The notes under the pieces were generated by a model, which was not told where the DNA came from, searched no databases, and saw only the letters and a program-made list of their open reading frames with translations. Source: Escherichia coli (lineage in GTDB: Bacteria; Pseudomonadota; Gammaproteobacteria; Enterobacterales; Enterobacteriaceae). From it: a DNA stretch of 64,000 nucleotides. This document shows, in pieces, positions 30,546 to 30,995 of this stretch. Every line of letters starts with the position of its first letter. Position 1 is the stretch's first letter. The position numbers and the translations under genes are program-made. Location: NCBI RefSeq assembly GCF_045037415.1, contig NZ_CP173438.1. One strand, 5' to 3'.

Positions 30546-30995
30546 TCACACTTTCCCCTGTCGTTTACACCAGATAATCGTTGTCACTTTTGTGACCTCT
30601 GAGAAGATAAACAACGAAATATTTAAGACCAGATCCTGTGAATAAAAATAATTAAGTAACAACGGTATTACGGAGATTGAACAGCTTACGGTAGCAAAAC
30701 GCATAAACTCCTGAATCGCCAAAAAAGAGAAACTAAATAATTTTTGTCTTAAAAAACATTGCGCAGAAAAGAATAAAGAGAACAATAATACTATTTGTAG
30801 CGTAACAGTGGCGACTGCATAAGCGTAAAAACCGCCTTCAACACCGATATCCTTAAGTAAAGAAAGTGAATGAACGATATCGGAATAAAAAGGGATACGA
30901 CCATTACCAAGCGAGTAGAACAGATATGTGGCTATCGCGATAACATCCATAACACCCCAAAAAAGAAGAATGTATTTTTTATATTGACGTTGCAT
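30546..30995 (-). CDS. hypothetical small integral membrane protein, ~4 predicted TM helices, in AT-rich islet
   Basis: 149-aa ORF with four long hydrophobic stretches; RBS-like aaaaagga upstream; codon and base composition strongly AT-biased unlike flanking genes; no family recognised. Confidence 0.55.
   Translation of the reverse strand: MQRQYKKYILLFWGVMDVIAIATYLFYSLGNGRIPFYSDIVHSLSLLKDIGVEGGFYAYAVATVTLQIVLLFSLFFSAQCFLRQKLFSFSFLAIQEFMRFATVSCSISVIPLLLNYFYSQDLVLNISLFIFSEVTKVTTIIWCKRQGKV

Follow-up and report, generated by a model that had tools for sequence, protein, structure and literature searches.

What is encoded by the AT-rich DNA that separates metH from yjbB in some Escherichia coli strains, and does it still serve the bacteria that carry it? 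We addressed this question in a window of 64,000 nucleotides, that is, the whole stretch of E. coli DNA that was analyzed. An earlier note, made from the sequence alone, had drawn attention to about 0.85 kb of AT-rich DNA behind metH. The AT-richness was borne out: GC is 33.9% in the islet and 52.6% over the whole window, and it drops to 30-35% in 200-bp segments of the islet. However, its length was underestimated, and 1,040 bp were measured between the two core genes. The features of the interval are as follows.

31416..35114, minus strand: metH, flanking core gene (ORF list and RefSeq annotation)
31388..31407, minus strand: intrinsic terminator of metH, ACCGGGGTATTTGCCCCGGT followed by a T-run, at the upstream edge of the islet
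30376..31415, no strand assigned: AT-rich islet, from the metH stop to the yjbB start (1,040 bp, 33.9% GC)
31038..31356, minus strand: frameshifted pseudogene of a 106-aa soluble protein (RefSeq 'frameshifted')
31004..31008, minus strand: Shine-Dalgarno motif (AAGGA) of the 149-aa ORF, 8 nt ahead of its ATG (read from the sequence)
[quoted passage not shown]
30376..30545, minus strand: 170-nt spacer from the stop of the 149-aa ORF to the yjbB start
28744..30375, minus strand: yjbB (Na/Pi cotransporter family), flanking core gene (ORF list and RefSeq annotation)

The metH terminator is also kept in divergent Escherichia variants, and a weak promoter-like site (31397..31369) overlaps it. No terminator was predicted in the spacer at 30376..30545, and transcription read-through from the 149-aa ORF into yjbB is possible. 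The last ~30 nt of this spacer, including the ribosome-binding site of yjbB, are common to K-12. As the note had stated, K-12 has only a short spacer at this site; it lacks the islet, and its 219-bp counterpart resembles the islet only near the yjbB start when the two are aligned. The islet contains no mobility genes, as previously stated, and an Rfam scan of it returned nothing significant.

A second gene in the islet, at 31038-31356, had been overlooked. In the window it carries two single-base deletions, located in A-runs at about 31,28x and 31,24x, and it is frameshifted in ST131-type genomes; other strains have an intact copy (WP_000590025.1). Homologues of the 106-aa protein were found only in Escherichia, the dN/dS among intact copies is 0.18-0.30, and no match was obtained in Pfam, NCBIfam, PADLOC or PHROGs. 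We considered this gene as a remnant of a toxin and as a second member of the four-helix family described below, and both possibilities were rejected after negative profile-profile comparisons. In the Escherichia variant whose 149-aa protein is 85% identical, a REP-like sequence takes the place of the 106-aa gene, and the 149-aa ORF and its ribosome-binding site are intact.

The 149-aa ORF corresponds to the RefSeq entry WP_001189565.1, a hypothetical protein. Its AT-biased codon usage, which had already been pointed out, is reflected in a GC3 of 35%, compared with 63-66% for yjbB and metH. The plausible ribosome-binding site was likewise confirmed as AAGGA 8 nt upstream of the ATG, and this motif is kept in all Escherichia variants, including the variant without the upstream 106-aa gene. 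The dN/dS of the ORF against the 85%-identical Escherichia variant is 0.12 (Nei-Gojobori; Sd 42.5, Nd 26.5, dS 0.65), and values of 0.12-0.15 were obtained across Escherichia lineages at a dS of ~0.65. The largest homologue cluster (at least 90% identity) comprises 1,071 member sequences and is represented by a full-length 149-aa protein. A dN/dS of 0.12 rules out a chance ORF, and the 149-aa ORF is a real gene under purifying selection.

The earlier note had found no family for the protein in the sequence. This holds for the curated libraries, since searches of Pfam, NCBIfam, PADLOC and PHROGs with the 149-aa protein returned nothing, none of the 47 family members that we aligned matches Pfam, and a sequence-profile search of the PDB gave nothing. 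A word-indexed protein search recovered only near-identical Escherichia sequences; its low-identity matches were rejected as distinct homologues because they are frameshifted copies of the same gene. However, an exhaustive HMMER search of 1.84 billion cluster representatives, with a profile of the Escherichia variants as the query, revealed a clear uncurated family in Enterobacterales and Pseudomonas. It returned 71 matches, of which ~50 are full length (137-160 aa) with 22-40% identity, and the family HMM matches the E. coli protein with an E value of 2e-49. In the alignment of 47 sequences, D17, R99, S106 and K136 are invariant and W13, G14, P35, D39, S73, Q95 and E133 nearly so, and the 149-aa protein retains every family-invariant residue. 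Several members in Klebsiella, Salmonella, Yersinia and Pseudomonas are labeled 'arginine:ornithine antiporter', which we regard as a propagated mis-annotation.

The structure prediction that had been proposed as a check was informative once the wider family was included. AlphaFold2 gave an uninformative model with a seven-sequence Escherichia alignment (pLDDT 45.8) and a confident one with the 47-sequence alignment (pLDDT 88.5, pTM 0.79), in which helices span residues 2-30, 37-50 (a loop helix), 55-82, 89-102 plus 109-116, and 122-148. Hydropathy and the model both give four TM helices, in agreement with the four long hydrophobic segments noticed before; these lie at about 8-30, 55-82, 89-116 (with a break at 103-108) and 122-146, and the loop helix 37-50 is predicted to be periplasmic. 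The distribution of K and R residues, eight in the predicted cytoplasmic segments versus two in the periplasmic ones, fits an N-in/C-in topology. Foldseek searches of AFDB50 recovered the same family with TM-scores of 0.8-0.95 (Superficieibacter, Kosakonia, Trabulsiella, Yersinia pestis, Pseudomonas, Pasteurella and others), and fold searches with the model returned only this family or generic four-helix bundles, with no functional lead.

A functional lead came from the genomic context of the distant homologues. The closest relatives outside Escherichia are encoded directly downstream of a 258-269-aa protein with the Pfam domain DUF8093, and the two ORFs overlap by 26 nt (loci L012-14 and the metagenome contig L011). 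The DUF8093 protein consists of two parts, an N-terminal region of ~150 residues and a C-terminal module of ~120 residues. An HMM of the N-terminal domain matches the 492-aa Tle of Pseudescherichia vulneris (E = 3.9e-7), whose C-terminal lipase domain is that of the Enterobacter cloacae 'T6SS lipase effector' Tle (PDB 7UBZ). Pfam, NCBIfam and the PDB yielded no match to the ~120-aa toxin module. With 50-60% identity, it also forms the C-terminal part of VgrG proteins from Citrobacter braakii, Serratia, Salmonella and Rahnella and of a Burkholderia fragment, and such VgrG fusions occur in many Pseudomonas as well. The toxin-bearing VgrG proteins contain DUF2345 and Gp5_trimer_C domains, and the C-terminus of the Salmonella VgrG matches the toxin HMM with an E value of 8.8e-57. 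The family gene directly follows the VgrG-toxin fusion in C. braakii, in Salmonella and on a Rahnella megaplasmid, and in both Citrobacter and Rahnella the pair is followed by a lipase effector gene. In Yersinia aldovae, the toxin is encoded beside Hcp and is directly followed by the family gene. In Kosakonia, the family gene directly follows the toxin, and a read-through fusion protein (P0168) was also found.

To scan for linkage, we searched one genome for each of 100,044 species with an alignment of the toxin module and then with the family HMM. The module was found in 53 species-representative genomes, which belong to Pseudocitrobacter, Kosakonia (eight), Enterobacter, Trabulsiella, Leclercia, Cedecea, Lelliottia, Citrobacter, Pluralibacter, Serratia, Yersinia, Affinibrenneria, some 25 Pseudomonas and Stutzerimonas, and a Lysobacteraceae genome. 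In all 53, a member of the four-helix family comes right after the toxin ORF on the same strand, with its first matched residue between -79 and +112 nt from the toxin stop and mostly between -13 and +30 nt. Pairwise identities are 23-47% for the membrane proteins versus 45-61% for the toxins, with a Pearson r of 0.53 between the two over 15 non-independent pairs; by these identities, the membrane proteins diverge faster than the toxins. The family also occurs in multiple or solitary copies. Three tandem copies follow tle-tli-tli in P. vulneris, further copies lie in a VgrG/PAAR/Rhs island of Franconibacter, and lone orphan copies are found in Pseudomonas, in Phytobacter, where the copy is located upstream of yjbB, and in Klebsiella pneumoniae, where it is flanked by pgm and kdpE.

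Taken together, the family exhibits downstream linkage to a toxin, ties of that toxin to the T6SS, faster divergence of the membrane protein, and orphan and tandem copies. By accepted criteria (PMC12994826), this combination of features marks a polymorphic T6SS effector together with its cognate immunity protein. The toxin linkage, the divergence and the orphan copies fit a T6SS effector-immunity pair, as judged from sequence comparison. The guess that the small membrane protein might confer immunity or toxin resistance is thus supported by the context of its distant homologues, and the search for homologues beside toxin genes that had been suggested did find them, beside a T6SS toxin module in 53 of 53 genomes.

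The distribution of the islet in E. coli was then established from complete genomes. It is carried by 1,132 of 5,426 (21%), always as a single chromosomal copy, and the K-12-type 219-bp spacer is present in 4,293; these two alleles at metH-yjbB cover essentially every complete E. coli genome. The same spacer in K-12 and all E. coli, which would have made the ORF an unannotated core feature, was therefore not found. As for presence and absence, the islet is missing from K-12 and present in O25b:H4-ST131 and in avian-pathogenic O2:K1:H4 strains, as well as in koala, bat and cattle isolates; in one strain, an IS1 is inserted in it.

Whether the islet arrived recently is a separate matter. Divergent Escherichia lineages have the ORF at the same site with 85-90% protein identity, and their metH-yjbB DNA is 91-94% identical to the window. 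Moreover, a complete pair of toxin and membrane protein occupies this very site (iclR-metH-[pair]-yjbB) in Kosakonia and in another enterobacterial genus, represented by loci L012-14, whose metH is ~83% identical to that of E. coli. The homology between the E. coli islet and the Kosakonia and L012 cassettes is limited to the 149-aa ORF, and no toxin remnant was detectable in the islet when it was compared with them. The islet therefore looks like the remnant of an old cassette that has been lost or replaced in most E. coli. Because the site is shared with related Escherichia lineages and with two other genera, the simplest history would be an old metH-yjbB cassette from which the toxin was lost in Escherichia, followed by loss or replacement of the islet in most E. 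coli lineages. The view of the islet as a horizontally acquired insert is accordingly doubtful, and a recent insertion into B2 is less likely than the old cassette.

The E. coli copy appears to stand alone. HMMs of the toxin module and of the N-terminal domain gave no match in the 64-kb window, a word-indexed search of 5.8 billion proteins yielded no E. coli protein among the toxin homologues, and no DNA match to the toxin gene was obtained in the 5,426 complete E. coli genomes at blastn sensitivity. At the homologous VgrG-lipase loci of true E. coli, the lipase gene comes right after VgrG, and the toxin module and the family gene are both missing. The only record titled E. coli in the one-genome-per-species scan, 'E. 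coli E69', carries a VgrG-toxin fusion, but in this region no complete E. coli genome matches it above 84.6% identity. The E. coli 149-aa protein itself is at most 40% identical to any toxin-linked family member. Judging by the window and the E. coli sequences searched, the 149-aa gene appears to be an orphan.

Overall, we propose that the 149-aa gene is probably an orphan type VI immunity gene, because the complete cassette is found at metH-yjbB in other genera and its toxin appears to be lost in Escherichia. According to our putative mechanism, the members of this uncurated family would be the cognate immunity proteins for the hydrophilic T6SS toxin module of ~120 aa. Three routes of delivery are suggested for the toxin in other Enterobacterales and in Pseudomonas: as a C-terminal fusion to the VgrG spike, as the partner of the ~150-aa DUF8093 domain that also forms the N-terminus of the E. 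cloacae-type lipase effector Tle, or from a gene beside Hcp. In each case, the gene for the membrane protein lies immediately downstream of the toxin, often overlapping its stop codon. In Escherichia, the toxin gene would have disappeared from the metH-yjbB cassette and the immunity gene would have been left behind. The product is predicted to be an integral inner-membrane protein with four TM helices and both ends in the cytoplasm. In this topology, a conserved G-R-I-P-x3-D loop and the helix 37-50 would be periplasmic, and a conserved polar cluster (D17, S73, Q95, R99, E133 and K136) would lie in the half of the bundle that is nearer the cytoplasm. T6SS toxins carried by VgrG reach the periplasm. 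Since they arrive there and the immunity protein would be polytopic in the membrane, the arrangement suggests that the site of action of the hydrophilic toxin is at or in the inner membrane, where the toxin would also be intercepted. The 149-aa protein would neutralize the toxin on its entry, either at the periplasmic face of the membrane or inside it, and B2-type E. coli would thereby be protected from competitors armed with the ~120-aa toxin.

A more far-reaching version of this proposal is conceivable, and we put it forward only tentatively. The pair might represent an undescribed effector-immunity family distributed over Enterobacterales and Pseudomonas, in which immunity operates through a conserved charged network (D17, R99, E133 and K136) in the inner membrane and the hydrophilic toxin has a new membrane-associated target. 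The toxin-less allele, which would predate the Escherichia split, might then make B2 strains (ST131 and ST95-type) truly resistant when gut competitors such as Salmonella, Citrobacter, Enterobacter and Kosakonia attack with their T6SS, and might in this way contribute to successful colonization. Conserved charged residues inside the membrane are unusual for a mere toxin binder, and a transport or enzymatic role could also be considered.

Several other explanations were weighed against an orphan type VI immunity gene. The ORF might descend from an immunity gene that is now useless in E. coli and persists because it is harmless. Such a relic would suit the loss of the toxin partner, the frameshifts in the neighboring 106-aa gene of ST131-type genomes, the IS1 in the islet of one strain, the absence of the gene from 79% of E. 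coli, and the identity of at most 40% to any toxin-linked member. However, the dN/dS stays at 0.12-0.15 across Escherichia lineages with a dS of ~0.65, the ORF is intact even where the upstream gene has been replaced by other sequence, the cluster of 1,071 member sequences has a full-length representative, and all family-invariant residues are kept. We therefore consider a relic unlikely.

It would be more improbable, in our opinion, that the 149-aa protein is a housekeeping membrane protein tied to the phosphate transporter gene yjbB, as an accessory subunit or a co-transcribed partner, and has nothing to do with immunity. All 53 toxin-bearing genomes pair the family member with the toxin, and no yjbB adjoins the family gene in the Salmonella, Citrobacter, Yersinia, Rahnella, Pseudescherichia, Franconibacter and Pseudomonas contexts examined, nor next to the K. 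pneumoniae orphan copy between pgm and kdpE. Most E. coli, K-12 included, have yjbB without the 149-aa gene. These observations weigh against a role with yjbB. In its favor, yjbB is the next gene downstream of the family gene in Escherichia, in Kosakonia, in the genus represented by L012-14 and in Phytobacter, an arrangement that could in principle point to a tie with yjbB and not to a common insertion site; no terminator was predicted between the two in E. coli, and the conserved charged residues inside the membrane would agree with such a role.

Small polytopic inner-membrane proteins also protect against pore-forming colicins, and an AT-rich islet fits accessory DNA. Immunity to a different weapon, whether a colicin, a microcin or a contact-dependent inhibition toxin, or phage exclusion might thus be invoked, but we find this very hard to sustain. 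The 149-aa protein has no match in PADLOC, PHROGs, Pfam or NCBIfam, and every toxin partner found is tied to the T6SS. A translated search of 72,556 plasmids yielded two matches, either in chromosomal housekeeping surroundings or on a chromosome-sized record, and no colicin context. Neither the 149-aa protein nor any of the 47 family members matches the colicin-immunity Pfam families. Phage exclusion, one of the options raised at the outset, finds no backing in PADLOC or PHROGs or in any phage context. Finally, a spurious ORF, which the scarcity of stop codons in some frames of AT-rich DNA and the absence of a curated family might have suggested, is refuted for practical purposes by the dN/dS of 0.12, the ~50 full-length homologues with 22-40% identity and conserved motifs, the confident AlphaFold2 model and the strong Shine-Dalgarno.

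Polytopic inner-membrane immunity proteins are found among both colicin and T6SS systems; the colicin immunity proteins Cai and Cei and the T6SS immunity proteins TsiV2, Tsi5 and Tmi have three or four TM helices and adjoin their toxins. The family of the 149-aa protein resembles them in consisting of small polytopic inner-membrane proteins encoded beside a toxin. It differs from DoxX, MauE and DUF2127-like bundles, with identities below 10%, no Pfam match at an E value of 0.001 or better, and the D17/R99/S106/K136 signature, which is specific to this family.

Among known T6SS pairs, Tle-Tli from E. cloacae, in which a lipase effector is combined with an ankyrin-repeat immunity protein (PDB 7UBZ/9CYS; PMC11470151), is related by architecture and position. 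The cargo form of the partner toxin has the same N-terminal DUF8093 domain as Tle-type lipases, and the four-helix family members of Pseudescherichia lie just downstream of tle-tli-tli. However, the toxin module is a domain of ~120 aa unrelated to the lipase, and the putative immunity protein is a four-helix membrane protein and not an ankyrin-repeat lipoprotein like Tli. The PIX effectors described by Carobbi et al. provide a further parallel: they combine an N-terminal domain of ~140-150 aa, homologous to residues 1-140 of Pse3, with a C-terminal toxin that varies, their immunity gene is no more than 25 bp away, they are encoded away from T6SS clusters, and three of their C-terminal types have unknown activity (bioRxiv 10.1101/2023.07.16.549128). 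By description, the cargo-form toxin is similar to them in architecture, and the Kosakonia metH-yjbB cassette is likewise encoded away from T6SS clusters. In contrast to PIX genes, Tle, which also bears DUF8093, lies inside a T6SS cluster; DUF8093 is probably distinct from PIX, again as judged from its description, and Kosakonia, Trabulsiella and Y. aldovae are missing from the part of the PIX dataset that was consulted. Possibly, the toxin is one of the uncharacterized 'STox' domains (Nicastro et al. 2026, PMC12994826) or of the 'Unknown' domains of Carobbi et al.; the portions of the STox and PIX tables consulted, which give accessions without sequences, contain no matching accession. A literature search by accession and by DUF8093 found no paper that names the family or describes the pair of toxin and membrane protein.

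If our proposal is true, about a fifth of E. coli, including ST131- and O2:K1-type strains, carry a chromosomal antidote without the cost of the weapon, and this antidote would counter a type VI toxin with which many Enterobacterales and Pseudomonas are armed. The locus would then offer a testable case of orphan-immunity defense in Enterobacteriaceae. To our knowledge, such defense has so far been documented mainly in Bacteroidales and Vibrio. Beyond E. coli, a toxin domain and an immunity family have been defined, their linkage in 53 of 53 genomes offers a basis for annotation, and the mis-annotation 'arginine:ornithine antiporter' on family members is flagged.

The acquired interbacterial defense clusters of Bacteroidales and the orphan immunity arrays of Vibrio cholerae are precedents for immunity genes of this sort. 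As in those organisms, the E. coli immunity gene would have been kept without its toxin, presumably against non-kin attackers, and the tandem orphan copies inside the T6SS loci of Pseudescherichia and Franconibacter are similar to the orphans of V. cholerae and Bacteroidales. Unlike them, E. coli has a single gene at a fixed site between core genes, with no recombinase or mobile element; the gene seems to have been in the genus for a long time and not to be a recent acquisition, and its protective effect is putative. An orphan T6SS immunity gene is of a known kind (for the general concept, see PMC12469244), whereas the four-helix family and its toxin are absent from Pfam, NCBIfam and PADLOC.

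Across the 5,426 complete E. coli genomes searched, the metH-yjbB interval was found as two clean alleles, the islet (1,132 genomes) and a 219-bp spacer (4,293 genomes). The islet and K-12 alleles share only ~30 nt of sequence, adjoining the yjbB start, and the metH terminator itself differs between them. Upstream of the 149-aa ORF, which we read as an orphan T6SS immunity gene, the islet carries the remains of a second gene. Additionally, IS1B was inserted inside the islet in one strain, Ecol_AZ153 (NZ_CP019000.1).

Window 30376-31415: islet allele, compared with the K-12 spacer (locus L010, 513-731).
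Window 31038-31356, minus strand: pseudogene of a 106-aa soluble protein, frameshifted.

Two 1-nt deletions, both in A-runs, were observed in the window copy of the 106-aa gene. The intact gene (WP_000590025.1) is present in O2:K1 avian-pathogenic strains and E. fergusonii, homologues of its product were found in Escherichia only, and comparison of intact copies gave a dN/dS of 0.18-0.30. This gene may be another orphan immunity gene. It is related to neither the toxin nor the four-helix family, and the protein had no family match in Pfam, NCBIfam, PADLOC or PHROGs. In an Escherichia lineage whose ORF is 85% identical, REP-like sequence takes the place of the 106-aa gene (L005, about 1565-1800), and the ribosome-binding site and 149-aa ORF are still present.

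The metH-yjbB site holds a whole T6SS toxin together with a four-helix immunity gene in Kosakonia and a second enterobacterial genus (L012-L014). In this toxin a DUF8093 domain is joined to the ~120-aa module. No T6SS genes were called within the ~5-6 kb retrieved to each side. Family members from other loci are listed with these cassettes.

L029/L030 (Kosakonia) 5001-6228 and L012-L014 5217-6453: toxin-immunity cassette.
L028 5989-6426: four-helix family member of Klebsiella pneumoniae, between pgm and kdpE.
L021/L022 5998-7547: three tandem four-helix paralogues of Pseudescherichia vulneris.
L024 6652-8457 (Citrobacter braakii) and L027 4817-6817 (Rahnella megaplasmid): VgrG-fused toxin-immunity pair.

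The K. pneumoniae copy appears to be an orphan amid housekeeping genes. This copy and other family members, with WP_004152228.1, the Salmonella protein P0054 and several UniProt entries as examples, are labelled 'arginine:ornithine antiporter'; no four-helix protein of ~145 aa can be such a transporter, and the label is therefore a propagated mis-annotation. In P. vulneris, the paralogues lie in a T6SS cluster, immediately behind tle-tli-tli (lipase effector and immunity genes) and ahead of vgrG-PAAR. A toxin module is absent up to 6 kb away, and the three paralogues look like an immunity-gene array.

A VgrG-toxin fusion with its immunity gene was also found in CP089930.1, a 4.44-Mb genome titled 'Escherichia coli strain E69'. 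Its VgrG region shows at most 84.6% identity to any of the 5,426 genomes, and the genome is a species representative of its own in the species-level genome set; probably it either bears a wrong label or belongs to a divergent lineage. Where toxin and VgrG are fused, as in C. braakii and on the Rahnella megaplasmid, the pair sits as an insert with vgrG on one side and a lipase (Tle-like) effector gene on the other; the same vgrG-lipase arrangement occurs without this insert at the loci of true E. coli (PapRG-06-5, SCU-171).
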